Virus record (IMG/VR): IMGVR_UViG_3300032030_000014
Coordinates: 67,919-131,918 of that record
From: a virus
Length of the DNA stretch: 64,000 bases
Reading direction: 5' to 3' (one strand)
Below the pieces are notes generated by a model. The model was not told where the DNA came from and ran no database searches. It was given only the letters and a program-made list of their open reading frames with translations. Shown in pieces: positions 1 through 64,000 of this stretch (within the stretch, counting starts at the first letter, position 1; each line of letters starts with the position of its first letter). Both the position numbers and the translations under genes were made by a program.

Positions 1-630
1 TATGGTAAGGGTTATACTCTTGCTATGCAGGAATATGATGAACAGTTCCGCAAGATTCTCCAAATGAATTATGGTCTTGTAATTATCTCCCATGATAAGG
101 ATAAGACTTTCAAGGATGAATCCGGTCAGGAGTATAATAAGATTGTTCCTACTCTGGACAATCGTGCCGCTCTGGTTTGCGAGCGCACCTGTGATATTAT
201 TGGATATGCTCGTGAAGTAAATACAGAGAATGGTCCTCAAACTCGCCTGTTCCTTCGTGGAACTCCTCGTTTTGAAGCTGGTTCTCGTTTCCGCTACACT
301 CCCGATTCCATTGAGTTTTCTTATGATGCTCTGGTAAATGCTATTGGCGATGCTGTTGAGAAGGAAGCCGCTCATGGAGCCAATCGTGTAACAGATCATA
401 GCCAGAGTGCAACTGTATATGCAGAAGAAACCACATATGATTTTGCGGCTATGATGGATGAGTTCCAAGCAATCGTTGGCGAACTTGTTAAGAAGCCCAA
501 TATGACAGCGAAGATTACCGCTATTGTAGACAAGCATCTCGGCAAGGGCAAGAAGGTTGCTGAATGCACCGCAGTTAATGCACCTCAACTTGATCTCATT
601 CTTTATGAACTGAGAGAATTGATTAAGTAA
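1..630 (+). CDS. AAA_24 / Sak4-like RecA-fold ATPase, C-terminal part (gene starts upstream of the window)
   Basis: ORF is open from nt 1 in the frame of the 25..630 ORF. The motif LVIISHDKDK...DESGQEY...PTLDNRAAL is typical of the phage AAA_24 (PF13479) C-terminal region. TAA stop at 628-630. Confidence 0.45.
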   Translation, partial: YGKGYTLAMQEYDEQFRKILQMNYGLVIISHDKDKTFKDESGQEYNKIVPTLDNRAALVCERTCDIIGYAREVNTENGPQTRLFLRGTPRFEAGSRFRYTPDSIEFSYDALVNAIGDAVEKEAAHGANRVTDHSQSATVYAEETTYDFAAMMDEFQAIVGELVKKPNMTAKITAIVDKHLGKGKKVAECTAVNAPQLDLILYELRELIK

Positions 631-640
631 ATATATAAAA

Positions 641-674
641 GCCTCGTAGATCCTCTGCGGGGCTTGACTTTTAT
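641..674 (+). terminator. putative rho-independent terminator after the ATPase gene
   Basis: Stem gcctcgtaga / tctgcggggc (10 bp including two G-U pairs), 3-nt loop, followed by ttgacttttat. Confidence 0.35.
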
Positions 675-692
675 ATAAAAATATGATATAAT
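664..692 (+). promoter_or_regulatory. sigma-A type promoter (TTGACT-17 nt-TATAAT) for the 726 operon
   Basis: Exact -35 at 664-669, a 17-nt spacer, TATAAT at 687-692. AGGAG ribosome-binding site at 711-717, ATG at 726. Confidence 0.5.
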
Positions 693-725
693 AAATATAT
701 AAAATGGTGAAAGGAGAATTAAAAA

Positions 726-1259
726 ATGGCACATTATGTAGTCTGCTCAATTTGTAAAGAGCGATTTGATAGAGATAAATATCCTGCTGTCCTTGTAAGT
801 TCGCGTCGATATGCACATGCGACTTGTGCCGGCACCCTTTCACAAGAAGATGAACAAAAAGAAAAAGACAGAAAAGCGTTAGAAAATTATATTATCAAAT
901 TATTTAATTTAGAGCATATGGATGGACGCATTACTTTACAAATATAGAAATATATGCAAGATCATCCTGAATATACATATTCTGGTATTAAAAGAACATT
1001 AGAATATTTTTATGAAATAAAGAAAAATTCATTGGAAAAGGCTAATGGTGGTATTGGCATTGTTCCGTGGGTTTATGAAGAAGCAAAAAGATATTTTTAT
1101 AATCAATGGTTATTAAGTCAAAAAAACGCTGAGAAAGATATTGAAATGTATATTCCAAAAGTAAGAGAAATTGTTATTCAACCACCAAAACGCCAACCAA
1201 AGAGAAGAAAAGTATTTACATTTTTAGACGAAGAGGAGGTCAAAGACTGTGGCAAATAA
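726..1259 (+). CDS. zinc-ribbon protein (CxxC...H..C), probably one 177-aa protein read through the TAG at 945-947
   Basis: ORFs 726..947 and 954..1259 share a frame and are separated only by a TAG. A strong ribosome-binding site precedes 726 but none precedes 954. If TAG were a stop these would be two small genes. Confidence 0.4.
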
Positions 1260-1299
1260 ATATGTTGATACAACAGCAATTATGTAGGTCATTGGAAAT

Positions 1300-2793
1300 G
1301 TGTTTAATAATCCACAGCTCTTAGACTTTACAGATAAATATACCGTAAATGACGAAGACTTTCCAGATCAGTTTCATAAAATTGCTTTTGGAGCCATTTA
1401 TAAACTACATGAGCTTGGCGTTCAAAAGATTACTCTAAATTCAATCGCAGACTTTCTTGCGGCGAGACCTAAAAGCGAGGCTATTTTCAAACAGCAAAAA
1501 GGCGAAGAATGGTTGTTGAAAGTAGCAGAGAATTGTACTCCCAATGCTTTTGATTATTATTACGATAGACTAAAAAAGTTTACACTTCTTAGAGCATATG
1601 ATGCTTATGGTATTAGCGTAAATGATATTTATGACCCCGACGATATTCTTGATACGAAGAAAAGACAGGCTCAAGAAGATAAATTAGATAATATGAGCCT
1701 AATTCAAATCGCAGATGAAATTGATAAAAAAGTTGAAGATTTGCGCCTGCGGTATGTTGATGAAGTAATTGACGAAGCACAGCAGGCTGGCGATGGAATT
1801 TTTGAATTAATTCAAGGATTTAAAGATAATCCAGAAGCAGGAGTTTCTTTGTATGGTCCGTTGGTAAACACGGTAACGCGAGGAGCAAGATTGAAGAAGT
1901 TTTATCTGCGGTCAGCCCCCACTGGCGTTGGAAAATCTCGTTCAATGGTAGCAGATGCCTGTTATATCGGTTGCAATAAAATGTATGATGAAATTTTCGG
2001 CTGGATAAAAACAGGCCCAGCCCAGCCAACGCTATATATCGCTACTGAACAGGATTTAAGCGAAATCCAGACAATGATGTTAGCTTTTATTTCTGATGTA
2101 AATGAAGAGCATATCATTGATGGTAAGTATGAGGGCGATGAAGAAGAGAGAGTGCTTGAAGCGGCAAAGATTATAAAAAATTCTCCGCTGTATGTAGAAC
2201 ATCTTCCTGATTTCTCCCTTCAAGATGTTGAAAATAAAATTAAACGAAATATTAGAGATCACGATGTAAAGTATATTTTCCACGACTATATTCATACTTC
2301 AATGAAAATTCTTGAAGAAATTACTCGCCGTAGTGGTGGAGTAAAACTTCGTGAAGATAATATTTTGTTTATGTTATCTAATAAAATTAAAGACCTTTGT
2401 AATCAATATGGTGTATTTATTATGTCGGCAACTTAGTTAAACGCAGATTATCAAACAAGTGAAACACCAGACCAAAATCTGCTTCGTGGTGCAAAAAGTA
2501 TTGCTGATAAAATTGATTTTGGTGCAATTATGTTACTTGTAAAAGACGATGATAAAAAAGGTCTTGAAAAAATTCTCTCTACTGGAACCTTTGAAACTCC
2601 GACAATTAAGATTTCAGTATATAAAAACCGTAGAGGCAGATATAAAGGGATTTACCTATGGTGCAAAGCGGATTTAGGCACATGCCGCATCAAGCCCATG
2701 TTTGCAACAGGTTGGGATTACGAACTTATCCCAATTGATGATACAAGAATTCATATAGCAAGTGCATTTCCAGATGATGAAGAAGAAGATTAA
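1300..2793 (+). CDS. dnaB: DnaB-family replicative DNA helicase with one in-frame TAG (2434-2436) at the conserved Gln of motif H4
   Basis: Walker A LRSAPTGVGKSR. ORFs 1300..2436 and 2530..2793 share a frame. The sequence through the TAG reads FIMSAT-Q-LNADYQ...LLRGAKSIADKIDFGAIMLLVKDDD, which aligns with E. coli DnaB ALSQLNRSLE...DLRESGSIEQDADLIMFIYRDE. The start is ambiguous: GTG at 1300 or in-frame ATG at 1282. Confidence 0.85.
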
Positions 2794-2805: not shown

Positions 2806-3030
2806 ATGATTAGAAAGAATGAAAATTTTGGGACTTGTGTAATTACCACTGGCACTGGAACTGGCAAGGTTGGTGCTTGTGAGTATCAAATGCCGCAGTC
2901 TATGGCAACTGAATTACTCAAAGAACGTAAGGGCCAGGAAAAAAATATGCGACCACAAGAGTTTTTGGTAAAGTATGTTAATGAACAGTGTGGTCTGCTC
3001 TATAATTGCGTGAGGGTGACAACTATCTAA
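2806..3030 (+). CDS. hypothetical protein (74 aa)
   Basis: AGGAG ribosome-binding site before the ATG at 2806. TAA stop at 3028-3030 overlaps the primase ATG (TAATG). Confidence 0.5.
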   Translation: MIRKNENFGTCVITTGTGTGKVGACEYQMPQSMATELLKERKGQEKNMRPQEFLVKYVNEQCGLLYNCVRVTTI

Positions 3031-4136
3031 TGTTAGTCTTTGATAAACAAGAAATAAGAGATAGTTTATCAATAGATGACATATTTGACCTTCTGGAAGA
3101 ATGGGGCGGTGAGCCAGAGCGATGCCCGACTGGGCTCATCGCCCGAACTATATGTCATAATCGTTTAAATGATGATGCTTCTCGCAAACTATATTATTAT
3201 GAAAATACTGGATTATTTAGATGTTATACAGGTTGTGAAGACCCAGTATTTGATATATTTCAACTTTGTATAAAAGTTATGAATTTACAAAATAATGTAG
3301 TTTATGATTTAAATGATGCAGTTAGATGGATAGCCAGGAGATTTGGTATCTCTGGTAAAGAAGAAGATAGTCCAGAAGATGTTGGTTTAGAAGATTGGAA
3401 AATCTTAGCAAATTATTCTCGTATTCAAGATATTCAAATAGCAGCTCCGCATGTTGTGCTTGAAGAATATGATGATACAATTTTAACACGATTTAATTAT
3501 GATGTAAAAATAAAACCTTGGCTTGATGAAGGAATTTCAGAACAGGCTATTGAGCACGCAGAAATCGGATATTATCCAGGAGATGCACAAATTACAATTC
3601 CTCATTTTGACAAAAATGGTAGATTTATAGGACTGCGTGGGCGCACTCTGGTAGCAGAAGATGCGGAGAAATATGGTAAATATCGTCCTATGAAAATCAA
3701 TGGAATTATGTATAATCATCCTCTTGGATTAAATCTATACAATTTTAATAATGCTCGTTGTGTAATTCCCAAAATGAAAAAAGCTGTTGTATTTGAAGGC
3801 GAAAAAAGTGTTTTGAAAGCACAAACATATTTTGGTTTTGATAATGATATATATGTCGCTTGCTGCGGCAGCAGCTTATCTTCTTACCAAACACAACTGC
3901 TAATTGATGCTGGAGCACAAGAAATTGTTATTGCGTTTGACAGACAGTTTCAGAATGTTGGAGACGATGAATATTGTCATCTGTTGAGAAACTTAAAAAA
4001 AATACAAATGAAATATAAGAATTATGTTCAAATTTCATATATTTTGGATAGAAAAAAAATAACAGGATATAAAGATAGTCCAATAGATTGTGGAAAAGAA
4101 AAATTTTTGATATTATATAAAGAGAGGGTTCAATGA
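3030..4136 (+). CDS. dnaG: DnaG-like DNA primase (zinc-binding region plus TOPRIM)
   Basis: Cys/His zinc motif CPTGLIARTICHN..FRCYTGC. TOPRIM-like VVFEGEKSVLKAQ...CCGSS...DRQFQNVGDDE. No in-frame TAG. TGA stop at 4134-4136. Confidence 0.7.
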   Translation: MLVFDKQEIRDSLSIDDIFDLLEEWGGEPERCPTGLIARTICHNRLNDDASRKLYYYENTGLFRCYTGCEDPVFDIFQLCIKVMNLQNNVVYDLNDAVRWIARRFGISGKEEDSPEDVGLEDWKILANYSRIQDIQIAAPHVVLEEYDDTILTRFNYDVKIKPWLDEGISEQAIEHAEIGYYPGDAQITIPHFDKNGRFIGLRGRTLVAEDAEKYGKYRPMKINGIMYNHPLGLNLYNFNNARCVIPKMKKAVVFEGEKSVLKAQTYFGFDNDIYVACCGSSLSSYQTQLLIDAGAQEIVIAFDRQFQNVGDDEYCHLLRNLKKIQMKYKNYVQISYILDRKKITGYKDSPIDCGKEKFLILYKERVQ

Positions 4137-4507: not shown

Positions 4508-6286
4508 ATGGAATTTCAACTATTAACACCCAGTGTCCCAATAGATAAAGATGCAACATTGGTAGACAAGGTGTTCGCAAACAGAGGGGTATTTCCCTTT
4601 GACATTTATCACTATCTACATACTACGAAAGGAGATATATTAGAACCTGAGCTACTCGACAATATTGATGCAGGAGCAAAAATGTTTGTATAGCACCTTG
4701 CCGCAGGTGATAAAATTTTTATACAAGTTGATAGCGACGTTGATGGTTATACATCGGCTGCTGCTTTAATCAATTATGCAAATATGATTGCCCCAGGGCA
4801 TGCTTAGTAGAATATCTCCTACCGCATCCACGATGGGAAAGAACATGGAATTATTTTAGATACAATACCAGAAGATGTAAAGTTAGTAATTGTTCCAGAT
4901 GCGGGAAGTAATGATTATGAGTAGCATCAAGCCTTATATGACAGGGGCGTTGATGTTCTTGTAATCGATCACCACGAAGCCGACCGAGTTTCATAGTATG
5001 CCTGTATTATCAATAATTAGTTAAGTAAAAAGTATTCAAATAAATCACTCTCTGGAGTTGGAATGGTTTATAAATTTTGTGAGTATATTGATAAGTTTTT
5101 AAATAAAAATTATGCAGACGAACTATTAGATTTGGTCGCTATCGGTATGGTTGCAGATATGATGGATTTACGAAATTTTGAAACAAAAGAATTAGTAAAT
5201 TTAGGCATGAACCTACGTCGTAATCCATTTCTTGTTAACCTTATCGAAGCGTAGAGTTATTCCTTAAAAGGAAAGGTTACACCTTTTGGAATTTCATTCT
5301 ACATCGCTCCACTTATCAATGCGACAATTCGCGTTGGTTCATTGGACGAAAAACTGCTCTTATTTGAATCAATGTTAGACTTTCGTGCTTACGAGCAAAT
5401 AGCTTCAACAAAGAGAGGCTGTAAAGGATAGCTTGAGACAAGAGTTGAGCAGGCTTGTAGAAATTGCAAAAATATAAAAAACAGACAAACTAAAGCAAGA
5501 GATACAAGCCTAGAAATAATTGATGAAATCATTGAGAGGGATAATTTATTGTCGCACCCCATTTTGATTATCAAATTGGATAATCCAGTAGATGAACATC
5601 TTACAGGATTGATTGCTAATCAAGTTATGGGATAGTATATGCGGCCAGTGATATTGTTAAATCAATGCGTTGATATTGATGAAGAGACTGGCGAAATTAC
5701 AAAAATCGCTTGGCGTGGATCTGGACGAAATGCGACATACTCCAATTTAGTGAATTTCCGAGAGTTCTTGGCTAATAGTGGTCTTGTGGAATATGCACAA
5801 GGTCATGCATCTGCTTTCGGCATTGGCATTTTAGATGAAAATTTAGAAGCATTTACAAAATATATTGATGAAGAATTAAAAGATTTTAGTTTTAGTAATT
5901 GTTATTATGTAGATTTTTGTTGGGTTGGTAATGAAGTAGTTCTTCATGCAAAAGATGTTTTTGAGATAGGAAAACTTGCGGATAATTGGGGACAAGGATT
6001 AGCTGAACCAAAAATCGCAATACAAAATCTTCAAATAGAGAGTTCTCGTATTTCTCTTTTATCACCCGATAAAAATCCTACATTAAAGATTACCCTCTCC
6101 AATGATTTGACTTTAATTAAATTTAGGTCAAGTCAAGAGGAATATGATAATTTATATTCTGAAACAGGTTGTGTAACATTAAATGCTGTTGGCACTTGTA
6201 ACCTCAATGAGTGGCAAGGCAAACTTAGTCCACAAATTGTTATAGAGGACTATGAAATTGTAAGCAAATCTAGTTATTATTTTTAA
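4508..6286 (+). CDS. recJ: RecJ-like DHH-family ssDNA exonuclease / phosphoesterase (~592 aa) with nine in-frame TAG codons
   Basis: ORFs 4508..4693, 5063..5254 and 5639..6286 are all in frame 2, and the intervening stretches read through TAG only. DHH motifs are present: DSDVDGYTSAA (DxD), LVIDHHEAD (DHH), SLSGVGMVYKF (GxGxA-like motif IV). Two consecutive TAGs at 4805-4810. AGGAGG ribosome-binding site at 4489-4494. TAA stop. Confidence 0.8.
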
Positions 6287-6329: not shown

Positions 6330-7094
6330 ATGAGAAAGAAAATTAGTATCTTAGTTATTATCTGCGTTTTAATGATGGCTTTTATTGGATGTAATACATC
6401 CGTTGATGCAAGTTCTCCATATATTCCCACAGAGGATTTAGATATTTTATATTTTTTTAATGATATAAATATTGAAATTGAAAATCTTTTGTATAGACAA
6501 AATTTAGCACATGAAATGGCTGAGTGCGCAAGGTCTTTAGGATATGCGGAAGACTGTGAAGTAATTCTTGCGGCAAAAACAGAATGGCACAAATGTGAAG
6601 AACAACTCCAAGCGAATATGGAATACATTTCTAGCTGGATTAAAAAATTTGAAGAATATCCATATGCGACTTATATTTGGTTATATTGTGTGAAAGAATT
6701 GGGTTATAGTAATGAAGTAACAGCGGGATTGTTAGGAAATATGATGGCTGAAGTTGGTGGTGGAACATTAGACCTCCAATATTGGCTTTACTCTTATGGA
6801 AGTGGATATTATTACGGGATATGTCAATGGAGTAAAGATACATATCCTGATGTAAGAGGACAAGATTTAATTTTCCAATGTGAATATTTGGCAAACACAA
6901 TTGAATATGAATTAGATACTTTTGGATATGCTTATCAATCTGGTTATAAGTATGCTAACTTTTTGGAACTAACTTCTGTTGAAGAAGCGGCTTTAATGTT
7001 CGCAAAATGTTATGAAAGATGTGCCAAAAGCACATATTCAGTAAGACAGAAGAATGCTGGAAAGGCATATGATTATTTTATGGGGTTATGCTAA
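6330..7094 (+). CDS. secreted lipoprotein with a phage-tail-lysozyme-like domain (PF18013-like)
   Basis: Signal peptide MRKKISILVIICVLMMAFIGC with a lipobox Cys. The core AGLLGNMMAEVGGGTLDLQYW...YGICQWSKD resembles the GNxxxESG...QW motif of the phage tail lysozyme family. AGGAGG ribosome-binding site. Confidence 0.55.
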   Translation: MRKKISILVIICVLMMAFIGCNTSVDASSPYIPTEDLDILYFFNDINIEIENLLYRQNLAHEMAECARSLGYAEDCEVILAAKTEWHKCEEQLQANMEYISSWIKKFEEYPYATYIWLYCVKELGYSNEVTAGLLGNMMAEVGGGTLDLQYWLYSYGSGYYYGICQWSKDTYPDVRGQDLIFQCEYLANTIEYELDTFGYAYQSGYKYANFLELTSVEEAALMFAKCYERCAKSTYSVRQKNAGKAYDYFMGLC

Positions 7095-7125
7095 GCATAA
7101 CCCCTTATTTTTATAGGAGTTTATA

Positions 7126-7620
7126 ATGATAGATAATATTAATTTAGAAATTCATGCGGATATGGCAGCAATTAAAGGAGGAAAGGGCAATCCTATTCTT
7201 TTTGAACTTCCAACCTCAGTTACTTATACATTAGACGATGCTAAAATAAATGAAGATATATTTTCCGCCTTATGTCAGAGTATGGCACAAGTTGGAACAT
7301 CTGCAAAAGATGTAGGAGAAGCATTACGGAAACTCTCTATTTGTTTATATGATAAAGATAAACAAGAATTTAAATCTACCAAGGATATTTTAGAAGAACT
7401 GGCTGATGAATGGAATGAAATTGGTTGTATTAATCCTGCTACACCAGAAGAAATTTCGCAGGCACTGGCTGGACCGGCAACGCCTGAAGCAACCGAAACC
7501 CCAAACCAAAATGCCGATTTCGATTTTTTGGAGCAAAATGCTTATAAAGAAGTTGAAAATATTTTTGATGGGGAACAGTTTGGGCAGATAGTCCCACTTG
7601 ACATACCTAAAAATTTATGA
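7126..7620 (+). CDS. hypothetical acidic protein (164 aa)
   Basis: Ribosome-binding site TAGGAG 10 nt upstream of the ATG. No TAG. TGA stop. Confidence 0.5.
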   Translation: MIDNINLEIHADMAAIKGGKGNPILFELPTSVTYTLDDAKINEDIFSALCQSMAQVGTSAKDVGEALRKLSICLYDKDKQEFKSTKDILEELADEWNEIGCINPATPEEISQALAGPATPEATETPNQNADFDFLEQNAYKEVENIFDGEQFGQIVPLDIPKNL

Positions 7621-7626
7621 TATAAT
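7598..7626 (+). promoter_or_regulatory. consensus sigma-A promoter TTGACA-17 nt-TATAAT
   Basis: Exact -35 at 7598-7603 and -10 at 7621-7626. It overlaps the last codons of the 7126 gene and sits upstream of the ATG at 7663. Confidence 0.5.
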
Positions 7627-7662
7627 ATTTATAAGAAATAAAAGTAGGGAGTTTTTTATTAT

Positions 7663-8016
7663 ATGGATCAATATGTAGCAACAAAATTGATACAAGAAGA
7701 ATGTGATTATGATGAAGATTTTAAAAAGCAAGTTGAATTGTTAGATCAATATGATTTTAGCGAATTTATAACAGATGGTAGAAGTTTATGGAACCTACGT
7801 GATGTTATTGAACAAAAATATGATAAACACTTTTGGGAAAAATATGGTGTTTATGTATTTGAAGATATGAGTGGTGAAGATACTTGCAATTATTTTGCCA
7901 GTAGATATAATGTATGGTTTCAAGAATATATGGATTGGGTGGTGAGACACGACCATGGAGCTAACGAAAAAACAAGAAGACGGACTGAAGATAGCATTAG
8001 AGAGATGGAAAAATAA
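7663..8016 (+). CDS. hypothetical protein (117 aa)
   Basis: ORF behind the promoter above. Its 3' end overlaps the helicase start by ~60 nt in another frame. Confidence 0.45.
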   Translation: MDQYVATKLIQEECDYDEDFKKQVELLDQYDFSEFITDGRSLWNLRDVIEQKYDKHFWEKYGVYVFEDMSGEDTCNYFASRYNVWFQEYMDWVVRHDHGANEKTRRRTEDSIREMEK

Positions 8017-9157
8017 AGAAAAATATACAGTAATTTCAGGATACGCAGGAACTGGTAAAAGTACGCTCATAAAATTTATTATTGCGGCTATGGGTCTCTA
8101 TCCCAATGAAGTACGATATGTAGCTTATACAGGCAAAGCCGCAAATGTTTTGAAAAACAAGGGATGTCCAGGAGCAACAACAGCTCATAAATTAGTTTAT
8201 CATGCAAAGATGATGCCAAACGGCAAATACGTTTTTACTCCTAAAAAAGTTTATGAAATGGAACGAGAAATCAAAGTTGTTGTAGTTGATGAAGTTTCAA
8301 TGTTACCGAAAAGAATGTGGGATCTCCTTTGTCAATATAATTTCTATATCCTTGCTTGCGGCGATCCCGAACAATTGCCTCCTGTGCCAGACGGAAAGGA
8401 AGACCCTGATAATCATGTCCTTGACAATCCTCATGTTTTTCTTGATGAAATTATGAGACAGGCACAAGAGAGTGAAATCATTCGTTTATCAATGCATATC
8501 AGAGAAGGCAAACCACTACTTACTTTCCCTGTTCAAAATGAACAGGTTATGATTTTTAACAAAAAAGATGTAACCACTTCGATGATGACTTGGGCAGATC
8601 AAGTGCTTTGTGCTACAAACCGCAATAAAGCCACCCTTAATCAGCAAATGCGGCAAGCCTATGGTTTCCTTCCAGAAATTCAAGTTGGCGATAAAATTAT
8701 CAATGTTCATAATGAATGGGAAATTTGTTCTACTAAAGAGAATCCTTTGACGAATGGGGTCATTGGTAAGATTACTCAATTAGAAACTCAAGACTGGGAG
8801 TATCCATATTGGCTAAGAAATGAAAAATTAGTAGTGCCAATTTTAGTTGCCACAATTACAGGTGACGAAGAGGGAGAAGAATTTCAAATGCTGCCTTTTG
8901 ATTATACAGAAATTTTGACAGGGCAGCCTTCTTTGAGTAGCAGAGAAGAATATACTATTCTAAAAAAGTTAGAAATGCAAACTCCTCTGCACGCACACTT
9001 TGGCTATGCTATTACAGTATGGAAGGCTCAAGGTAGCGAATGGAATAAAGTATTACTCTTCCAGGAAACAGGATGGCCTCGTCAGCCAGACGAACGCCGC
9101 AGATATATGTATACGGGTATTACTCGTGCGGTAGATAAATTAGTGGTGGTGTCATAA
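7955..9157 (+). CDS. SF1 DNA helicase, Dda/RecD/Pif1-like (AAA_30)
   Basis: Walker A GYAGTGKST, Walker B VVVDEVSM, motif III ILACGDPEQLPPV, C-terminal TVWKAQGSEW. No TAG. Confidence 0.8.
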   Translation: MELTKKQEDGLKIALERWKNKEKYTVISGYAGTGKSTLIKFIIAAMGLYPNEVRYVAYTGKAANVLKNKGCPGATTAHKLVYHAKMMPNGKYVFTPKKVYEMEREIKVVVVDEVSMLPKRMWDLLCQYNFYILACGDPEQLPPVPDGKEDPDNHVLDNPHVFLDEIMRQAQESEIIRLSMHIREGKPLLTFPVQNEQVMIFNKKDVTTSMMTWADQVLCATNRNKATLNQQMRQAYGFLPEIQVGDKIINVHNEWEICSTKENPLTNGVIGKITQLETQDWEYPYWLRNEKLVVPILVATITGDEEGEEFQMLPFDYTEILTGQPSLSSREEYTILKKLEMQTPLHAHFGYAITVWKAQGSEWNKVLLFQETGWPRQPDERRRYMYTGITRAVDKLVVVS

Positions 9158-9813
9158 TGGGATTATATACAAATAATGGCCTATTAAATGGCTATAAAAA
9201 GAATAATAAAGAAAGAGCCGAGTTGGATTATTATGCAACTCCAACCGCAGAAGTTGAAAACATTCTCAATGTTCTACAATATAATTTTTCTGATAAAATT
9301 ATATTAGAGCCTTGTATCGGCGGAGGACATATGCTTGATGGTATTATCAATTACATTGATAAAAACAATCAATCTCCAAAATCAATTATTGGAACAGAAT
9401 GGACTGATAGAGGATACCAAAACAATAGATGCAATATTGTTTATGGATTGGACTTTTTAGATGATGATTATCCCGCTAATAAAGCGGACGTAATTGTTAT
9501 GAATCCTCCATATGTAACTCTTGAGCCTTTTCTTATTCGCGCTCTTGAGATTGCCAAAAGAGATTTAATTGTGCTTTGTCGCACCCAGGTTCTCGAAGGC
9601 GCAAGCCGATATAAAAATATTTTTGCGAATAATCCTCCTGATGATATTTATCAATATATTGACAGAATCCAATGTTGGAAAAATGGCAAGAAGCCTAAAG
9701 AGTCATCTGCCCAAGCATATTGCTGGCTTGTGTGGAAAGATATAAATATCACCGGAACAGCTGTTCGTCCTAATATTACACCGCAGTTACATTGGATTCA
9801 TCGAGCAGATTGA
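9157..9813 (+). CDS. orphan N6-adenine (amino) DNA methyltransferase, NPPY class
   Basis: Motif I EPCIGGGHM and motif IV VIVMNPPY. Its ATG overlaps the helicase stop (TAATG). No TAG. Confidence 0.7.
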   Translation: MGLYTNNGLLNGYKKNNKERAELDYYATPTAEVENILNVLQYNFSDKIILEPCIGGGHMLDGIINYIDKNNQSPKSIIGTEWTDRGYQNNRCNIVYGLDFLDDDYPANKADVIVMNPPYVTLEPFLIRALEIAKRDLIVLCRTQVLEGASRYKNIFANNPPDDIYQYIDRIQCWKNGKKPKESSAQAYCWLVWKDINITGTAVRPNITPQLHWIHRAD

Positions 9814-9838
9814 TTTATATAAAAAAATATGTTATAAT
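9810..9838 (+). promoter_or_regulatory. sigma-A promoter TTGATT-17 nt-TATAAT upstream of the polymerase gene
   Basis: -35 at 9810-9815, 17-nt spacer, TATAAT at 9833-9838. GGAGG ribosome-binding site, then ATG at 9867. Confidence 0.5.
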
Positions 9839-9866
9839 ATAAGTATGATAAAAATGGAGGTTATTT

Positions 9867-19244: not shown

Positions 19245-19253
19245 ACAAAAAAA

Positions 19254-19913: not shown

Positions 19914-19916
19914 TTA

Positions 19917-44293: not shown

Positions 44294-44302
44294 TATTTCA
44301 AC

Positions 44303-47716: not shown

Positions 47717-47729
47717 TTATTCTACCTCC

Positions 47730-50700: not shown

Positions 50701-51281
50701 TAATATTCTTCTGCCATTAAAACATCCGAGTTATTAATTTCAACTGAAGCCTATGTCATTTTAGCGGTTTTAATTTCTTCCTAACCAAAATCAATAGAAG
50801 CAAACAATTGACCACCTAAATCACCATTAAGTAAAGACATTTTATCTTTACCCTGTAAAGATATAGTGCAATTACTAATACCTATTGAAGTATTAAAACT
50901 TGTGACTAAAAAGATGCCTTCCTAAAACCATACAATTTCAGGATATAAATTATTATCAATTGAAGAATATTCGTTTGATAATGAATTAACAATTCCTATC
51001 TCTAAACTAAATTTAGTTTTTAGTCCCCAATAAAAATCATTAATATCTATTTCATCACTAATCATGGTTAAACTACAAGTACGACGAACAGAAGAAGCAC
51101 CATCAATATTAATACTACCACCAGTTACTTTTCCTTCAATGCTATCCAATGGCAATTCATTAATATCTAATGCAGAAATTTTTGCATAAACGGTTCTTTC
51201 TTTTTGTTCTAAAAGAGCTGCCAAAAAATCTTCATCCAAAAGAGATAAATCTCTTGTTTCTTTTAAAAAATGTGATTTCAA
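47730..51281 (-). CDS. large structural protein (~1183 aa)
   Basis: Track ORFs 47988.., 50079.., 50334.. and 50922..51281 share a frame. AAGGAG ribosome-binding site then TTG at 51281. Ends ...NANKAPERFY with a TAA (~47730) that overlaps the ribosome-binding site of the next gene. Confidence 0.45.
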
Positions 51282-51295
51282 TTTTGATCACTCCT

Positions 51296-54255: not shown

Positions 54256-57200
54256 TCAAGCAAAACGAGCATATATACCATATTGATTTTCTGCACTCAC
54301 TTCAACTTTTAAAAGCGGTCCTCTAATAAAAACTCCGGCTCCATCGCTTCCTCCTCCACTTTTAGCAACAACTTCAGCACCACTGTTGGTTGATTTTAAA
54401 CTTGCTCTTCCTTCTGATCCATGAGCTTCAATCCAAACGCCGTCGCCTGCTTTTAGTCCAATATTAGATCCAGAGGACTAAACAATAAGAGTACCAGAAG
54501 AAGTAATGCCTATCGCATTGGTTTGTGTAACTCCATCATATCCAGTTACAAATCCTAAATGTCCCTAGACGTCACTATCGTCTAAAGTTGATTTTGTGCT
54601 AAGTTTAATATGATTTGTAGTAATACCTTGTTTAGGATCTAAAACTGTCCAAAAAGTAGTTCCATCAGGAGGACTCTGAATTTTACCAGAATCAATAACC
54701 CATCCTCCAAGCCAACCTCGATTAGCTTGAACATAATTAGCAAAAATATCAGAACCCTTTATTAAAGAACCTTCAATATAAGCTCCTTTTAATGAACCTC
54801 GTTCAATATGAACATCTCCAGCCCATCCCACTCTAAAAGATGGAGTATTACCATCTAAACCAATCTTTAATGGATAATGAGAATCTTGTGAATTAATAGA
54901 AATATTAGTATAAGCTGAATCAATAGGAACCGTTATAGGTTCAATATTTCGTTCGCCCGTTATACTTCCTTCTATTGGCACTGAATTATATTCCTAATAA
55001 CTATATCCGGAAATAAACTAGTTCATCGTAATATATCCATCGTCTATGTCAAGCAACATACCAAGATTACGATTACCTTTCCAGTTACTTGAATAAATCT
55101 ATGAATCATCACCATCAAACCATATTCTACCTTTTCCTTCTTTTCCTATATAGCCAGTTCCATTCTCTAAAAAGGCATATGAAGTTTCTCCTTTATGAAA
55201 ACCATAGATACCCGTTTGTGCAGATAATTCAGGAGAAACAACATCTCTACTAAAATCACCAATCATAACCCCAGAAAATTTATTATCTTCATCTTTTTTC
55301 CCTGCGGCAAAAGCAGAAGCTAAAACAATTCCTGTATTATCATCCAAAACAATATCTGTACCATTCCACTGATTTACTGTTGTAGATGGATACCTATCTT
55401 GATATACATATATTGGCTAAGACCATAAAATAATGTTATCTTTTTTACAAATAACACCATAATTTTTAGCTTCCTTAACATAAACAACAATAGGTTTTAA
55501 AAGTCTATTTTCTACAGTTGGCACAAAATTATCTTTTTTTCTTGGGTCTGGATCAATATAATAAATTGGTTCCCAAACCAAATTTTCTTCTGATTCTTCA
55601 AAATTTGCTAAAATTCCGTTTTCATAGTTCTAAGCAAATAATCTATAAGGATTCTAATAATATTCTGGTTCTCCTGTTAAAGGATACCAAACTCTATCAG
55701 CACCTTCAATATATCTTACTTGATAAGTAATCTAATCATTAGTTCCCTAAGTTCCATTTTTTAAAGGAATTGGAAAATAAGAAGTTAAATTATAATCTCC
55801 AAAATTTTTCAATACAACTTGAAGAATATTTAAAGATTTTAATAAAACATCTGTAGAAGAATCAGCTTTAGGTCTAACAATAAAAGTATTTCCACCATGA
55901 TATTCATACTCTAATAAAGCAATTTTATTAACCATTTTCTCAGACTACAATGGATAATAATAAGTTTCATAAAGAGAAAAGTCATCATTTGGATCTAATA
56001 TATAAAATCCACCTTTTTTTACAAAAGCCTTCTTAGACCAAGAATTATAATAATTAAAATAAATCTCTCCAGAATCATTAGAGTTTGTTTGATAGAACTT
56101 TGCATCATTTCCACTATTTTTTATATCAATAATTTCTTTTAAAAATACATTAATGTCAGTATTTGTAAATAAACCTTCAACCAATTCTTTCGTCATCTTA
56201 TTATTAATTTTATAATACCACTATTTTTTAAAATTGTCAAGTCTTTGAGCACCTAATGTCTCAATAATTATTTTATATAAATCCACATCAGACTATTTAT
56301 CTAATACTAAAGCTTGTATCATTGACTATAATAGTTCTATCTCAGTATTTGGAATAGCTTCACTCAAAGTTTGATTATTAATAATAACTACATTCTAATT
56401 ATTATCAATAATAGATTTTGCAATTATATCTTTTGAAACAATATTGCTATTTGTTTTATTATAAGTATAAAAATTAGAATAATAAATATATGTATATAAC
56501 TCCTAAAGAGGATAGGTATTATTTACTAATATATTGCTAATTTTTTCTAATTTACCATTTGTGTCAACGTAATAATTATAATCAGAACCTATGGATAAAT
56601 TATACTCATAAGCTGGATAATCATTCATAGACTAAATTATAGTCTTTATCCAAGACGTTGCTGTTAAAGTTGGAATACCATTAAATGAACCAGTCCCATT
56701 TAAATATAAGTTTCGTAACAAAATAGTTGTATTACTATGATCACTATCTTTATTACTCTAAATATTACAGTAAGCACGGGTATAAATATCTTCATCTAAA
56801 GGAGACTTAAAACAAAGATTGGCTACATAATTATATAAATTTTCTTTATTAGTATTCTATATTAACTAAAATTGATAAAAATTCTTTTTCTAATAATAAG
56901 AACGTAATAAAGAAAACATTTTAGTTTTTAACTAATCTTTTTTACGGTCATCGGGACTAATATCTTTTACCTCTAAATAATTTGTATTCGCCGCAATAGC
57001 AAATTCATCAAAAAGATTTAATTCAATGTTCTATTGACTTCTATAATTACCATTACTATCATTTTCTGGATAATCAACATTAAAAACACAATCATAACAC
57101 TACCAAAAAATTTCCTCTTTAGATAATAATATATCTAAAGTTAATTGCTGCTATTCTTGCTCCGATTCATAATACTTATCTACATTATCATATTCATCCT

Positions 57201-60200
57201 TAAACAACATTGACATTAACTTAATATAAAATAAATTTTCTGAATCAGGAGTTAATTGCGTGATTGTTGGATTATTTTGCAATTTTTGAATTACCTTTGT
57301 ATATAATATATCATTATCTTGAACAGAACCATTATTAATACAATCTTTCTATAAAATTTTATTAATTGAAGCAAAATAAGTAGTCTCATTAGAGTATGGG
57401 AAGAAAATTAGAATATTAGATTTGCCAAAAACGTCTTCTGATCCAGTTGCATTTTTTACATAAGTATCTCCAAATAAATTTTTTAAAACTCTACTACCAT
57501 TTACAGGCCATGAACTAATAATAATTGCCATTAGTAAAGAAGTAAAATCTGGATAAAAACCATTTGTTGTAAAATAAAAATTGGTACATAAATACTTATA
57601 ATTAAAATTACTCATATTTCTTGACCAAGTAATATCTGATTTAGTTAATTGATTATTAGTACTCTCAGTAAGAGGTAATATTGTTGGAGTATCATTATTA
57701 CCTTCACCTATTGTCATTTCAGTATAATATAGAGGACAAAGATAAATTGTAGTAGTCGAATAAACTGGTTCATTGGTATATGGATTTGTACCAATCGGTA
57801 CCATCTAAGTTGTTGTATTATTTTTAACAAAATCATAGAAATCAAAAATATCTTTATCATTCTTTAAAAATAATGCATTGCTGGTCTTAAAAAAATCTCC
57901 TCTGTGATTTATCATATAATTTCTAAAGCATGTCTTAAAAACACTATTTTCTGGGATATAAGTAGAATTATCGTCTCCAATAATTTCTTTTGTTCCAGAA
58001 TAAACAATATTATTATCATTTAAAGATATTGTAATAACTGGAGCATCTCCGCTATATCCATTATAGCTTTTTCGTAAATAAGAAGCACATGCCTATAATA
58101 TAGGAGCTCCATCAAAACTAACAATGCCATCATTGTCAATATCTACGCCTTCTTTAAACTCCGCAATATAGTAGGCAGTATTTGTAGTAAAAGTTCCTAA
58201 ATAACTTAAATCATTCTATCTGGTTCTATCAAAAGTATTATGTGTAGTAGCATAATCTCTCATTATGGAACTAGTTGCATTTGTAAAAAATCCCATAGAA
58301 TTATCTAAAGGACCAAATCTTTGAGAATTTAAATTAATATAAAAATTTTCTTTAAACATTAATTTAAATAACAATCCAAGATTGTTAACTTCTTCTAAAA
58401 CATATTTATTTCCAGTAGCACTATTAAAATAAGTTTTAATATATCTAAATAAATCTTTACCATAAATATAATCTGCATTGGTATAATAATCAGAAGAAGA
58501 TATGTGTGTTATATGATATTCTACAGCATTATTATTATTGCCAGAAATTGTTCCATTAGTATTTTTTGACTAAATATCAGATAATAATTCTGCCTATTTT
58601 TGCCCTAACAAAAACTTTAATGAAAATAAAATATTAACATAATCATACTAAGAAGAAGACTCTGGATTTGGACCTAAAATAAGTTTTTCTCCTTGATTTG
58701 CTGTTAATGTAAAATTCATTAAATCAGTAAAATTCCGCATCTATTTTTGTCTAATAGCATCTAAAACAAAAATACTTCCAACTTCTTCATCATTAATATT
58801 TTTAAAATTCTATTCTAAATACCATTTTTGTTTTTCTTTAGAAAGAATTGTAGAATAATCAGAGGTTTGAACAAAACCGGGTGTGCGTAAATCTTCATTC
58901 GATTCAGAAGTTTCTGATAAAGATAAAATAGAAATTAAACAATTATTTAATCCACTCTAATTGTGAATTAATTCCTAAAACCCCTATTCATCATCTAAAT
59001 TCAAATTAGATAATATCTAAGATAAAGATTCTCCATTCTCTAAAGAATTTAATATTGTAGTTTTTAAATCTAAATTACTATAAGACATTAAATATGAAGT
59101 AGACAAATTTGTATTCTAAATTTCATTTTTACTTTTTTCATTATAATCAATAATTCTACTTAAAATAGCCTCCCAACTATCAGAAGTATAATTAAAATTC
59201 TATTTTAAGTTATTTTTTAACTAATTTGTATTTGAAGTATTATTTGAAATAATTTTATAAAATTTAATTTCTTCAGAATTAAATAAATATCTTAAAACAC
59301 CGCAACTTAAATAAGTTCCTGGAGAAATAAAAACAACTTCTCCATTATTTTCATATACATATCTATCTGTAGAATTTTCTGGAAGGACAAGCAATTCCTA
59401 TAGAACATCAGCATTTTCTATAATCACATAAAAATACTATATTTGTAATTCTTCTAATCTTTCATTTGTTATAGCATCATTATCAAATAATAGAGAATAT
59501 AATTCTCTTAAAATGTTTATATCTGATAAATAACTATCTGTAATATAAAAACGTTTATTATTATAATATAAACCAGGATCATTATTAAAATCAAGCAATT
59601 TTGAAATTAATTCTATTCTCAAAAATTGTCCATTAGAATGAATATTAAATAATTCATCTCTTAATGTTTTACTATTAGTATTATTTCCTACCTTAATTTG
59701 CCAATTATAAGTAGAAGGATTTAGAGTATATATCTATTCATCTACTTTATTATAGTATTGTTCAGCAAAATATTCAAGAATAGTAATAAAATTTTCTCCA
59801 GTCCAATACTAAAGTATATTCTATTGAATAGCATTAAAAAATTCTTGTTTAGTAATTGCTGTGATGTTAGTTTTAAAAAATACATCATCTGCGGCCTGGC
59901 TGCTTAAATTAAGAATAGTATTACTTTCGTCCCCACCATAAACATTTTCTAATTGTTCAAAAATTAACTACTTTTTCTTTTTGCTTTGTTCAGTTTCATG
60001 AGTTTTATAATAAAACTATTGATATTGAATATACTCTTCTTCGTCTATAGTATATTCATAACTAAAAGCATCTAAAAATTTATCAGGAATACCAGTTCCT
60101 TGTGCAGTACTATTAGCAATCGTTTCTGCTGTTAATTGCTAATTAGCAGCTACTCCATTATTATATGTTTCTACACAATTTGCAAAATGATTTTTTTCAT

Positions 60201-62688
60201 TATCCCAATAATAAATCTTAGATATTTTCTCAAATATACTTGTTTTATTTTCACTGGTTACACCACTAAAAATTATACCATCTTCGCCTAAAACGAGTCC
60301 GGCATTATTAAATATATCTTTTAAAGTATAATAATAATAATGTCCCTATCTTTGACTATCTTTTCCATCATCTAACTATCCTTGTTTAAAAGTTACAAAA
60401 TTACTTTCTGTTAATTCACCATTTTCATATTTATCTTCAGCTAAATAAATAGGATAATAATAATCTGTTTCTTGATAAGCCGGTTGCAAAATTTCATTCG
60501 CATTTGAATCTGTACGTTCTGCAACTTTCCAATCAATATCCCAATCAAAATCAGACTAAGTTACATTCTAACCATTCTAATCATAAAGAACAAGCTCTCC
60601 TTCAAGAACTTTTCTATCACCAAGGCTTGAACCATCTAAATGTTCACTTGGTTCAGTATTTAAAACATTTGATGAAACATCAACTGCGTTTTTACCATGA
60701 TGCCAAATTAACTAAATAGTATAATCAGAACCTGATGTTCCAGAAGTGCCAAATACCATCTAAGCTTCTGCGGTATAAGACTAACCATCTTTAATAACCT
60801 CTGCACGAACAGTATTACGTCCCGCATAGCGATTTAAAACAGGCTTAATAAAAAACGCAATTTTTGTTTGATTAGTAATAGTAAAATTATTTTCCTCTGT
60901 TGGATTTGATACGGGCTATGCCGCCGCACTTGCGGGCGTGGCAGGAACAATCATTGTATCACTGCCGCAAGGCACATACCATTTAATACTTGTCCAATCT
61001 GTTAATTCAGCTTTCTAATAAACATTTGGTTCGTTTGGATCAAAAGCAAGCTAAAGAAATCTAATTTCTTTATCCTAATCATTTAAAATTTTATCTGCTC
61101 TATCATATATAAAATAAGTTCCTAAACAATCTGACATTTCACCAGATTCATCCACAAACTGAATAGATAAAGCGTTCATATCAATAACAGATGCTTTATT
61201 TCTAACATCTGTTTTATTTGTAAACTCTAAAATATTACTTACTGCAACTCTTCTATAAATAGGATCGTTTTCTGTGCCTTCATTTTTAACAATAACGACT
61301 TTAATTTTCTCACTTGCATTATTTACATTGGGCCAAAAACGAATTTCTAACTCATTAGTAAAGGTATCTAATTCAGGAGTTGCTGTATTTGGATCTGTAA
61401 CATAATAATCTCCTTCACTATCCATACCACCAGTCCGAGGATAATAAAGACGCTCCCAATGGGCACCAGCATATATATCTGGACTCTAGGCTCCTAATTT
61501 ATATCTATACCAACGTACTTCATAAGTGTCTGGGAATTCATCAGGTTCTACTGCTTTTATTATATCATTTTCAGTATCTTTATGAACCCAACGTAATCCT
61601 ATAATTTTTTCATTATCACTAAATCTCTAAGCATAATCACTATCTGGAGATAAATCACCTTTATAGTAAGTAACTGTACTGGTAGTCATAATAGTAGCCA
61701 TATCTTCATTAAAATCTTCAACTGGAATGCCTAAACATAAATAAGGATCTTTAATAAAAATATTTGGATTTACATTACCAAAACCAGTTGCATCATTATA
61801 TGGAACTCTTTCGCCATTAGCTCCTATAAAATTTTCTCTTTGATATGCAAATAAACGCAATCTTGTAATAGGATAATCTGTATAATCACTTATATCATAT
61901 ACATTTTCTTGTGTATAATAAGTCTCAAAATTATACACATCACCAAAAAATTCTTTACTATCAAAAGTAATAATCTTAGTGAAGCTATTATTTGTATCTG
62001 TTTCAAGACTTTTAAAAGTAATCTCTATAGCTAAACCATAATTACCTGTATAAGTTCCATAATCGGCTAGCCAAGTAGAAAACTATGCAGATAAACCAAG
62101 TCGAGTATATTCTGCCTATGGAATAAAAGTATCATCAAAATCACTATCATATAACACCAAATTATTATATTGGTTTCTTAAATTTTTTCTTTCATCCATA
62201 GTAGATGCAGTTGCTATCTAAGTTAACAATCTATTTGCCGCAAGAAAAATCGTTGATGTCCTAAAATCATTATTATCAATATTCCAAGATAATCCTGTAT
62301 CTGCTGTTGGATCATTAGCCCAATAGCCAATTTCTTCTTTACCCTAAATCAAATTATTGGTAATATTTACTAATCCCTAAAAAGGAGATTTGTAAACCAA
62401 AGGAGTATTAGTATCATCTACCTATTTACCAATAATCATCTTTTGATTATCGTAATTACCCTATGGAATCATAACTAAAACAGCATCATTATTTTTATAT
62501 TCTACTTCGGTACTATATGCTGTAAATTTTGCATTTCCAGTAGAAACAACATAAACTCCTTCTTCAGCTCTTGTTGCATCTACTATTGTTGCATTAATTG
62601 TTTGATCAAATTTTACTGCATCAATTTTTTTATCAATTAATACACTAACAGCATCAAACATTATATCAGCATAATCTTTTTCTGCCAT
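54256..62688 (-). CDS. giant structural protein directly downstream of the tape-measure-like gene, ~2810 aa
   Basis: Nine track ORFs from 62461..62688 down to 54565..54981 share one frame. Hand scans of 61939-62460 and of 54260-54565 found no TAA or TGA until the TGA at 54256-54258 (...VSAENQYGIYARFA). AAAAAGGAGGG ribosome-binding site then ATG at 62688. The other gaps were not scanned. Confidence 0.45.
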
Positions 62689-62719
62689 AGTTATTATCCC
62701 TCCTTTTTCTCATATTTCT

Positions 62720-62749
62720 ATATTAACATAATTTTTTAATTAAGTCAAA
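62720..62749 (-). promoter_or_regulatory. possible sigma-A-like promoter (TTGACT-17-TAATAT) on the minus strand between the tape-measure terminator and the giant gene
   Basis: Reverse complement of 62720-62749 reads ttgacttaattaaaaaattatgttaatat. Coordinates are approximate. Confidence 0.3.
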
Positions 62750-62765
62750 TGTTCTTTTTAGGCCA

Positions 62766-62801
62766 ATAAAAAAAACGGGGAGAGGAATAAATCCTCTCCC
62801 C
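62766..62801 (-). terminator. strong rho-independent terminator after the tape-measure-like gene
   Basis: Stem ggggagagga, loop ataaa, stem tcctctcccc, then nine T on the minus transcript. Confidence 0.6.
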
Positions 62802-62807
62802 TCTGTA

Positions 62808-64000
62808 TTATGAACGATTAGCATATTGAGAAGCACGATTAACAAGATTATTAAATGCTTCTTCAATTTCACTATGATTTGTTGCATTTGGAAATTCTGC
62901 ATGAATTGTAACAGATTGTTCTAAAGTTTGAGAGCCTGCTTCATATGCTGGAGAACTAAGTCCGGTTGAAATATTACTTGCGGCCGCACGCAAATCAATT
63001 GCAGAAGCAAAATCTCTAACTAAAGATATTGCAGAAAGAATATTCTCTGTATCATTTGCATTAAGAACAAGCTCTTTTTCATGCAATACTGCCAATTTAC
63101 CGCTTGAGCCCCAGGTTCCAGTATATCCACCAGAAGCAAATGCCATTTGAACATTATTTCCGCCTCCGCCTCCGCCAGAAGATGAAGAAGTGGATGTCTC
63201 TATAGGAATACTGGCTGCGGCATTGACTGCTTCGGCTGCAGCAGATTCTGCACGGGCTGCATACTCTTCGGCCATTTTAATAGATCTAGCAATAATCTCA
63301 GCAGCAATCTAAACAGCACTAGAAACGGTATCTGCATTATTATGTAAAGCCTCAACTAAACTATTTGCGGCTTCCTAAATAATACCTTCTGCTTCTTGAG
63401 TTGTTTCATCAAAATGCTCTGTTGTTTCATCTGCTAAAGTCTAAAAATCTCCTGTCATAGCTGCTGCGGTATCCTAAATTGACTAAGCTGTGTTAGCAGA
63501 CTATTCAGTATTTTCATCAGTTTTTTCGGTAGATTCTTCTGTTGCTTCCTAGGCACTTTCAGCCTATGCTTTAGCTTCTTCCGCCAATCTATTAGCGTCG
63601 ATCTAAGCATTGGTATTTTCTTCTAATCTTTTAGCAAATTCTTCTAAAGAATATCCTTCTCCAGTAATACCTAATTCAGCCAACCTATCAGATGTATAAT
63701 ACTACTGATCTCCATTAACACCAGCAATTCCTTGTAAAAATGCCATTGCATCAGCAGACCTTGCATCATTATCGCCTCTTGAAGCAATATCCATCAATTC
63801 AAGAATCTAATCATTAGTCCACCATTTATCATTATGACCGCCATTTAACTCTTCTTTCTATGCTCTAAAAAGAAGCTGCTAAATAACATCATTATCAATA
63901 ACACCAGTTTCTAAGAATTTCTAAGTTGCAGCTAATGAATAGTCTTTATTGGCATCAAATTCTTCTTTATTAACGCCAGCCATTTCATTTAATGCGGCAT
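62808..64000 (-). CDS. 3' part of a long alpha-helical A/E/Q-rich structural gene, probably the tail tape-measure protein. The gene continues beyond the window
   Basis: Track ORF 62808..63275 is in frame with the hand-translated 63276-63998 (...NGGHNDKWWTNDQILELMDIASRGDNDARSADAMAFLQGIAGVNGDQQYYTSDRLAELGITGEGYSLEEFAKRLEENTNAQIDANRLAEEAKAQAESAQEATEE...). About 15 TAGs. TAA at 62808-62810. Confidence 0.4.

Follow-up and report, generated by a model that had tools for sequence, protein, structure and literature searches.

Borges et al. (bioRxiv 10.1101/2021.08.26.457843) reported that TAG is read as glutamine (Gln) and TGA as tryptophan (Trp) in eight phage clades, among which the large clades Jade, Sapphire, and Agate (127-210 kb) come from animal and human guts. 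The recoded clades were predicted to infect either Firmicutes or Bacteroidetes, the latter being the hosts of crAss and Lak phages, and those infecting Firmicutes were more abundant in non-Western and animal gut samples. The same study found several codes inside one clade, recoding of structural and lysis genes and, variably, of replication genes, and suppressor tRNAs in only 40% of the TAG-recoded genomes, and it proposed a model in which the suppressor gates the timing of late genes. For crAss-like phages, Peters et al. (PMC9523058) give metaproteomic confirmation of Gln at TAG, and phAss-1 of the Phassvirus group (Babkin et al. 2023, PMC10607447), a human gut phage of ~136 kb, carries TAG in many open reading frames (ORFs) together with suppressor tRNA genes. 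Here we analyze a 64-kb stretch of DNA with 32.5% GC (hereafter, the window), positions 67,919 to 131,918 of IMG/VR record IMGVR_UViG_3300032030_000014, which derives from a 163.7-kb contig (ENA ERZ27257205, k141_4886592; the window is at about 60,847-124,846, reversed) of an uncultured large tailed phage, probably from the rumen. In the window TAG is a sense codon and TAA and TGA terminate (code 15), and the use of TAG is strongly graded between an early and a late arm.

Under the standard code (translation table 11), stop-to-stop ORFs of at least 100 amino acids (aa) total 42.6 kb, the longest has 1,335 codons, and about two-thirds of the window is open. When TAG was treated as sense, the total rose to 76.9 kb and the longest ORF to 2,817 codons, while a control with TGA as sense reached only 55.8 kb. 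Allowing only TAA and TGA as stops, we curated a set of 45 genes, and non-overlapping genes defined in this way make 97.9% of the window coding. There are 284 in-frame TAG codons within the 45 genes and not a single in-frame TAA or TGA; 33 of the genes end in TAA and the other 12 in TGA. TGA is a working stop, as at five sites it overlaps the start codon of the following gene in the form ATGA (4133-4136, 13856-13859, 16629-16632, 16820-16823, and 18759-18762). On the minus strand, the region at 23.4-64 kb consists of long ORFs in succession, each of which has many TAGs in frame and neither TAA nor TGA. Since ~4-6.5% of codons across the minus-strand frames are TAA or TGA, the longest gene, a stretch of 2,810 codons free of both, is not a product of chance; at 5% per codon, we infer from these counts a probability of ~e^-140. 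Annotation with the standard code breaks this 40-kb tail arm of the phage into fragments. The public ENA gene calls for the source contig already pass through the TAGs, and in a near-identical sequence (L034; Logan SRR9006805, 7.7 kb; loci and contigs other than the source contig are given L numbers) standard-code calls split a RecJ-like gene into pieces of 44, 61, 63, and 215 aa.

Protein families and relatives give the same picture. Pfam profiles of DnaB, DHH/RecJ, NrdD, NrdG, dUTPase, and RuvC are continuous across TAG positions, the DnaB_C match covering 13-245/255 and the DHH match 1-125/125, and the anaerobic ribonucleotide reductase NrdD is recovered in full (NRDD 2-562/562, with ATP-cone and Gly_radical), as are Fer4_12 and Radical_SAM matches in NrdG. 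From IMG/VR we fetched 31 relative loci at the polymerase gene and 12 at the C-terminus of the tape-measure gene. The relatives were sampled in rumen and gut metagenomes, and IMG/VR has a clade of such contigs of 110-200 kb, the closest to the window being a 200-kb contig with 85% polymerase identity; judged by coding density, the clade mixes standard-code, TAG-recoded, and apparently TGA-recoded genomes. L037, L039, L051, L053, and L054 look standard-code, with coverage of 0.97-0.99 under table 11 in the first two. L037 and L039 carry uninterrupted ORFs of 2,547-2,785 aa (the tape measure), 1,539-1,649 aa, and 906-1,139 aa that are collinear with the recoded genes of the window, so the giant ORFs of the window are real genes. 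Its tape-measure fragment is homologous to the C-terminus of ORFs of 2,547 to 3,060 aa in relatives, its 2,810-aa protein has partial homology (484-842 aligned columns) to the uninterrupted 1,649-aa ORF of L039 and 1,539-aa ORF of L037, and homologs of the 1,183-aa and 903-aa proteins adjoin the tape-measure gene in relatives. The genes at 41182-47380 have no homolog in the fetched relative loci. In L071, L073, and L040, coding density rises from 0.84-0.86 to 0.94-0.98 when TGA, and not TAG, is taken as sense, which suggests that these are code-4 members of the same clade. A clade with mixed codes should be useful for studying how code changes arise.

A preliminary description of the window had proposed much of this: that TAG is sense and TAA and TGA are the only stops, that the late region is fragmentary under the standard code, and that the split DnaB, RecJ, NrdD, dUTPase, and RuvC genes rejoin over TAG. 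Coding density, profile continuity, and alignment statistics all agree with it. All 45 gene ends are TAA or TGA, table 11 yields only fragments at 23444-64000, and the five profiles run through. The comparison of table 15 with table 11 that it suggested gave a sharp increase in ORF total and lengths, and the in-frame TAA or TGA codons that it named as contrary evidence are absent from the 45 genes, giant ORFs included. It had also read the amber codon as Gln, and here too the alignments concur. Among 828 residues opposite the window's TAGs in relatives, Gln is the most common (225), followed by Glu (96), Lys (76), and Asn (76). Substitution profiles on the same alignments give the TAG columns a log-likelihood of -2207 for Gln, with Glu next at -2626 and all other residues lower. 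Gln remains the best fit in columns with at least five of six identical neighbors, for both early genes (72 Gln and 18 TAG of 121) and late genes (13 Gln and 4 TAG of 39). A longer version of the DnaB-like ORF, 1171-2793 with three TAGs, has Gln at 28 of 34 aligned TAG positions in relatives. Reciprocally, the window has Gln opposite 160 of ~380 TAGs of its relatives, more often than any other residue. Judged from these substitutions, TAG is evolutionarily equivalent to Gln.

TAG accounts for 47 of 323 Gln codons (14.6%) in the early arm and 237 of 488 (48.6%) in the late arm (Fisher p = 1e-24). About two thirds of the genes use it and 15 of 45 are free of it. The block at 6330-13859 reads alike under either code, as none of its 92 Gln codons is TAG. 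The preliminary description had placed the whole window in a TAG-sense code; nothing contradicts this, but it is overstated, given the 15 TAG-free genes and this code-neutral block. The same gradient is found across the relatives, in which the TAG share of Gln codons is low for PolIII-alpha (1.6%), the helicase (2.7%), and DnaB (4.8%) and high for RecJ (21%), RuvC (40%), and the 2,810-aa tail protein (42%). Avoidance of TAG in core replication genes is therefore conserved across 31 relatives and is not the quirk of one genome, and a core set of replication genes stays legible in either code.

Suppressor tRNAs occur in the clade. Among the IMG/VR loci, 31 at the polymerase, 12 at the tape-measure C-terminus, and 30 at the ligase, the only tRNA was a tRNA(CUA) in L069, 6.5 kb upstream of the ligase gene. 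A pattern scan seeded by this tRNA returned 68 loci, one of which belongs to a clade member that is TAG-recoded (L038 and L086 are on its contig), and probing with the Thg1-like gene beside the L086 tRNA brought up the closest relative's tRNA island. This island holds 21 tRNA genes on a 20.8-kb stretch around a Thg1-like gene, including tRNA-Gln(UUG), tRNA-Gln(CUG), and two tRNA(CUA) that lie 0.4-0.7 kb downstream of the Thg1-like gene. Both tRNA(CUA) are 75-76 nt long and carry G73, and in the first four pairs of the acceptor stem they are similar to the relative's own tRNA-Gln(CUG); whole-sequence similarity, at 64-68% to several isoacceptors of the island, is not diagnostic of their origin. 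An inspection of the 20-kb island by eye showed no release factor and no aminoacyl-tRNA synthetase. Three other clade contigs, and two metagenome contigs that encode the closest homologs (87-90% identical) of this relative's Thg1-like protein, have one tRNA(CUA) each at the corresponding place.

We therefore read the window as part of a code-15 phage in which graded recoding of TAG to Gln, by a phage suppressor tRNA(CUA), gates the late genes, and we give this reading a probability of roughly 90%. Since TAG is avoided in the core genes (polymerase, SF1 helicase, primase-like protein, methyltransferase), these can be, and would be, translated by a host with the standard code on entry of the phage. 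An amber-suppressor tRNA(CUA), accepted as a Gln tRNA, would then be made from a tRNA island elsewhere in the genome, and its accumulation would make the TAG-containing genes translatable, from accessory replication genes with few TAGs to the tail and fiber arm with TAG at half of its Gln codons. If TAG genes become translatable only as the suppressor accumulates, the code change would act as a timing gate for late genes. Competition by release factor 1 (RF1) would have to be overcome during late-gene translation. For 10% full-length product, an ORF with 70 TAGs needs more than ~97% read-through per codon, which means that RF1 competition must be almost abolished, perhaps by a factor that takes away nearly all RF1 activity; we found no such factor. 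That the window's genome has a suppressor, that it is charged with Gln, that it gates timing, and that RF1 is overcome are parts that we infer.

Several observations weigh against this reading. ARAGORN and Rfam found no tRNA genes in the window, there are none in the ~7 kb to its left, and a homolog search with the Thg1-like gene returned no protein from a contig of 163,725 bp, the length of the possibly incomplete source contig, the two best candidates being from other samples; a suppressor in the window's own genome is therefore presumed. Domains of release factors or aminoacyl-tRNA synthetases were absent from the 33 of 45 window proteins scanned, which comprise all large and most mid-sized ones except the 2,810-aa ORF. 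The replication genes DnaB, RecJ, and NrdD carry TAG, so the picture of early genes in the standard code is only partly clean. The amino acid itself is deduced from substitution patterns rather than peptides, and the late-gene TAG columns are uninformative against standard-code relatives, with 27-36% identity. Many Firmicutes lack a glutaminyl-tRNA synthetase (GlnRS), and the route by which Gln reaches a CUA tRNA there is puzzling.

Another possibility is that TAG is sense without standing for Gln. It could encode Glu, through a non-discriminating GluRS without transamidation, or Ser, Leu, or Tyr, and there are indications for each, as Glu ranks second opposite TAG (96/828) and some CUA tRNAs of the clade have a long extra arm like class II tRNAs. 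Such long-variable-arm tRNA(CUA), 90-97 nt in length, occur on two contigs linked to the clade by shared genes (L069 and L086/L146) and on about ten other IMG/VR contigs picked up by the pattern search. The log-likelihood of Gln nevertheless exceeds that of Glu by more than 400 units and that of Ser by more than 580, Gln stays best in conserved contexts, Tyr, Leu, and Trp are rare opposite TAG, and the CUA tRNAs of the nearest relative are of ordinary length with G73 and acceptor pairs like tRNA-Gln(CUG), all of which makes another amino acid improbable. Still less probable is that the phage takes over the code of a code-15 host, as code-25 phages of Absconditabacteria do with theirs. No bacterium is known to read TAG as Gln, and a host that did so would leave no reason for the strong and consistent avoidance of TAG in core replication genes across 31 relatives. 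The same clade also holds standard-code and apparently TGA-recoded members, relatives carry suppressor tRNAs of their own, and only about two thirds of the window's genes use TAG, the signature of standard-code hosts in Borges et al.

The fragmentation of the late arm under table 11 is what would be expected if the TAGs were real stops, in a decayed or pseudogenized element, an assembly artifact, or a genome with leaky read-through. Yet just one kind of stop codon interrupts the 45 genes, 284 times as against none for TAA or TGA, and relatives conserve the interrupted frames, which in standard-code relatives have intact giant genes as collinear counterparts. Leaky read-through could not deliver a protein through 70 stops. 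We consider the real-stop explanation already refuted by the asymmetry between stop codons.

The pairing of tRNA(CUA) with a Thg1-like gene (PF04446, the tRNA-His guanylyltransferase family) recurs in the clade. The Thg1-like gene is TAG-free and lies, within a tRNA island, 0.3-0.7 kb upstream of tRNA(CUA) on five of six contigs, the same order being found in L146, L149, L229, and L230, and in L148 the tRNA(CUA) is ~3.3 kb upstream of its Thg1-like gene. The long-arm tRNA(CUA) have a class-I-like D-arm, G73, and often the tRNA-Gln-like pairs U1-A72/G2-C71/G3-C70 in the acceptor; by eye, a hairpin of 22-27 nt with a YUGA loop occupies the variable region, and the acceptor and T stems covary across the family. 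It is tempting, though rather doubtful in our estimation, to see in the pairing and the long-arm tRNAs an undescribed conserved phage code-change module, in which the Thg1-like enzyme might mature or repair the suppressor tRNA and the extra arm might govern its charging or shield it from host defenses. If true, the module would bear on how TAG is decoded as Gln in Firmicutes hosts without GlnRS. Close to the tRNA island, L147 and L229 also encode DUF2828/DUF7788 proteins, and L229 a protein with the "shoulder" domain of the major vault protein, hinting at accessory genes for RNA handling.

The host is most likely a bacterium of the Firmicutes (Clostridia-type), since a scan of GTDB genomes matched only contigs of rumen metagenome-assembled genomes labeled Clostridiales or Clostridia, apart from one Methanobrevibacter. 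The latter, L226 (CACYVR010000001.1, 138,782 bp; "uncultured Methanobrevibacter sp. RUG12316"), has a polymerase gene whose product shares 52% identity with that of the window and is most likely a phage contig mis-binned into an archaeal genome, which we do not count as evidence on the host. SPbeta-type domains and polymerase and the AGGAGG ribosome-binding sites speak for the same host and lineage. The replication module has the SPbeta-family Pfam domains YorH, YorF, and YonG_N, and its YorL-type polymerase has 37-39% identity with the enzymes of the SPbeta group and of Enterococcus phages; ligase, ThyA, YorF, and GIY-YIG genes lie in the 7.2 kb left of the window on the source contig. We found no close relative in the GenBank phage collection (polymerase matches of at most 39.5%; nucleotide search with window positions 1-24000). 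Genes resembling GIY-YIG homing endonucleases occur at scattered places in the replication module and the tRNA islands of the clade, and one in L086 appears to split a DUF2828 gene. Coordinates of these and other features are collected in Table 1.

Table 1. Features of the window and of related contigs (positions are those of the window unless a contig is named).
Feature	Position	Strand	Remarks
Early arm, replication and nucleotide metabolism	1-23403	+	47 TAG vs 276 CAA+CAG (14.6%)
AAA_24 fragment	1-630	+	public gene call
YorH	726-1259	+	public gene call
DnaB-like helicase	1282-2793	+	Pfam DnaB and DnaB_C; 2 in-frame TAG, nearly always Gln in relatives
Possible primase	3030-4136	+	TAG-free (0/16 Gln codons); weak Toprim match below Pfam cut-off
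RecJ-like DHH exonuclease	4508-6286	+	DHH 1-125/125, RecJ_OB; 9 TAG (38% of Gln codons)
Code-neutral block	6330-13859	+	0 TAG/92 Gln codons; lysozyme-family protein, two hypotheticals, SF1 helicase, methyltransferase, PolIII-alpha
Tail-lysozyme-family (Phage_lysozyme2) protein	6330-7094	+	lipoprotein-like signal peptide MRKKISILVIICVLMMAFIGC
SF1 helicase	7955-9157	+	
N6 methyltransferase-like protein	9157-9813	+	
PolIII-alpha/YorL-type polymerase	9867-13859	+	1,330 aa
NrdD, small ORF, NrdG activase	14356-17314	+	4 TAG in NrdD, 1 in NrdG
dUTPase and RuvC-like resolvase	18181-19244	+	1 and 2 TAG; Pfam dUTPase; RuvC 1-144/148
Bidirectional terminator-like hairpin	19247-19288		16-18 bp; between convergent genes
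Two short genes inside early-arm region	19291-20312	-	
Six genes without assigned function	20496-23403	+	five recoded, TAG 12-67% of Gln codons (four 25-67%)
Small HExxH metallopeptidase-like protein	23092-23403	+	no TAG
Bidirectional terminator-like hairpin	23405-23440		junction of the two convergent arms
Late arm (tail, baseplate, fiber)	23444-64000	-	237 TAG vs 251 CAA+CAG (48.6%)
Fiber-like protein	23444-29167	-	1,907 aa, 22 TAG; weak Phage_fiber_2 repeat match
843-aa protein	30289-32820	-	TAG in 2/17 Gln codons
2,653-aa protein	33143-41104	-	47 TAG; C-terminal BspA-type LRR-like region
Six tail/baseplate-region genes	41182-54007	-	637, 373, 1,025, 110, 1,183, 903 aa; TAG, same order: 6, 5, 20, 3, 25, 19
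1,025-aa protein	44303-47383 (ORF)	-	20 TAG
1,183-aa protein	47730-51281 (ORF to 51287)	-	25 TAG
903-aa protein	51296-54007 (ORF to 54013)	-	19 TAG
2,810-aa protein	54256-62688 (ORF to 62709)	-	70 TAG, TGA stop; directly downstream of tape-measure gene
Tape-measure C-terminus	62808-63998	-	396 aa, 14 TAG; continues past window edge
Thg1-like/tRNA(CUA) loci	L147 10001-11587; L146 10001-11365; L149 10001-11380; L229 6456-7694; L230 254-1556		
Long-arm tRNA(CUA)	L069 3522-3618; L086 1609-1702 (= L146 11272-11365)		90-97 nt
Further contigs with long-arm tRNA(CUA)			L082, L097, L102, L111, L114, L118, L125, L129, L131, L135, L136
Island-side genes	L229 9962-11506, 13741-16194; L147 15924-17468		
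GIY-YIG-like genes	L033 2685-3467, 5021-5680; L036 2-556; L086 2909-3574, 4295-4972		

The large proteins of the late arm had almost no matches in PHROG and Pfam, and the assignment of the late-arm genes to the tail rests on their place beside the tape-measure gene and on the weak fiber and LRR matches. The 843-aa protein is an outlier in this arm, as TAG is scarcer in it than the late-arm rate of 49% would give (P=0.0017), for which earlier expression or other constraints might account. On the early strand, the six genes next to the arm junction (20496-23403) may be late genes, and a Gly/Trp-rich membrane-like protein is encoded among them at 21168-21974 (+). The Phage_lysozyme2-family gene is placed in the TAG-free early block and not in a late lysis cassette. 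Three ORF calls near the left end were rejected. The minus-strand ORF 1-843 (280 codons), produced by a longest-ORF caller, is a spurious, low-complexity frame without support in the public gene calls, and it exceeds the true plus-strand genes in length, which misleads longest-ORF calling. The small ORFs 811-1020 and 988-1158 from a greedy caller are likewise spurious, the true genes being the AAA_24 fragment and YorH.

Expression signals are of the kind expected from the preliminary description in two respects. Its Firmicutes-style ribosome-binding sites are borne out by AGGAGG-type sites upstream of most starts, and its hairpin terminators at gene ends by a roughly threefold excess of terminator-like hairpins (26 observed vs 8.7 +/- 2.8 expected from shuffled sequence), the strongest of which lie at the arm ends (19247-19288, 23405-23440, and 29205-29240). 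The cumulative GC skew also reaches its maximum at 23405-23440, the arm junction. The sigma-A promoters that it had mentioned find no statistical support, as a consensus scan of the window gave 88 sigma-70-like matches vs 76.8 +/- 8.4 expected, which is no enrichment.

How does this phage compare with the known systems? We rejected membership in the Crassvirales on account of the SPbeta-type module, the PolIII-alpha polymerase, best matches to Firmicutes phages, and strong Shine-Dalgarno sites. The crAss-like and Lak phages share with the window the same code change and the same late-gene bias; they differ from it in lineage and probable host, in that the window encodes a PolIII-alpha/YorL-type polymerase, nearest to those of SPbeta and Enterococcus phages, and in that its phage has strong Shine-Dalgarno sites and YorH, YorF, and YonG families. 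phAss-1 is alike in being a large genome with TAG in many ORFs; window positions 1-24000 have no nucleotide match to it, and polymerase matches in the GenBank phage collection, in which we assume phAss-1 is included, do not exceed 39.5%. A YorL polymerase (37% identical over 99% of its length) is common to SPbeta and the window's phage, as are the YorH, YorF, YonG_N, and DnaB families and tail genes of very great length. SPbeta records are annotated in the standard code, and identity is low; the shared replication-module families (YorL, YorH, YorF, and YonG) amount to kinship at a distant family level only (37% identity).

The closest parallel is with the clades of Borges et al., with which the window and its relatives have in common TAG as Gln, a late-gene bias, tRNA(CUA) in relatives, mixed codes, an origin in animal gut, and a size of 130-200 kb. 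The window's lineage differs in its SPbeta-like replication module, and we saw no release factor 2 (RF2) in the parts examined. Size, host phylum, mixed codes, and animal gut origin offer a lead, by analogy, toward kinship with Agate, Jade, or Sapphire; placement in these clades goes by large-terminase phylogeny (at least 95% bootstrap), and the terminase gene lies outside the window. The preliminary description had implied that Firmicutes-style signals in a recoded phage were new, but Borges et al. already describe TAG- and TGA-recoded clades that are predicted to infect Firmicutes and have the same late-gene bias. TAG as Gln in phages, the late-gene bias, and the occurrence of TAG as Gln in Firmicutes-infecting gut phages have all been published, and every feature that we tested in the window matches the Borges et al. 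picture. The finding is real and robust, yet nothing unusual among the phages of gut and rumen metagenomes: the window shows early-neutral and late-recoded genes cleanly and with a strong gradient, here in an SPbeta-like lineage, and it leaves existing knowledge unchanged.

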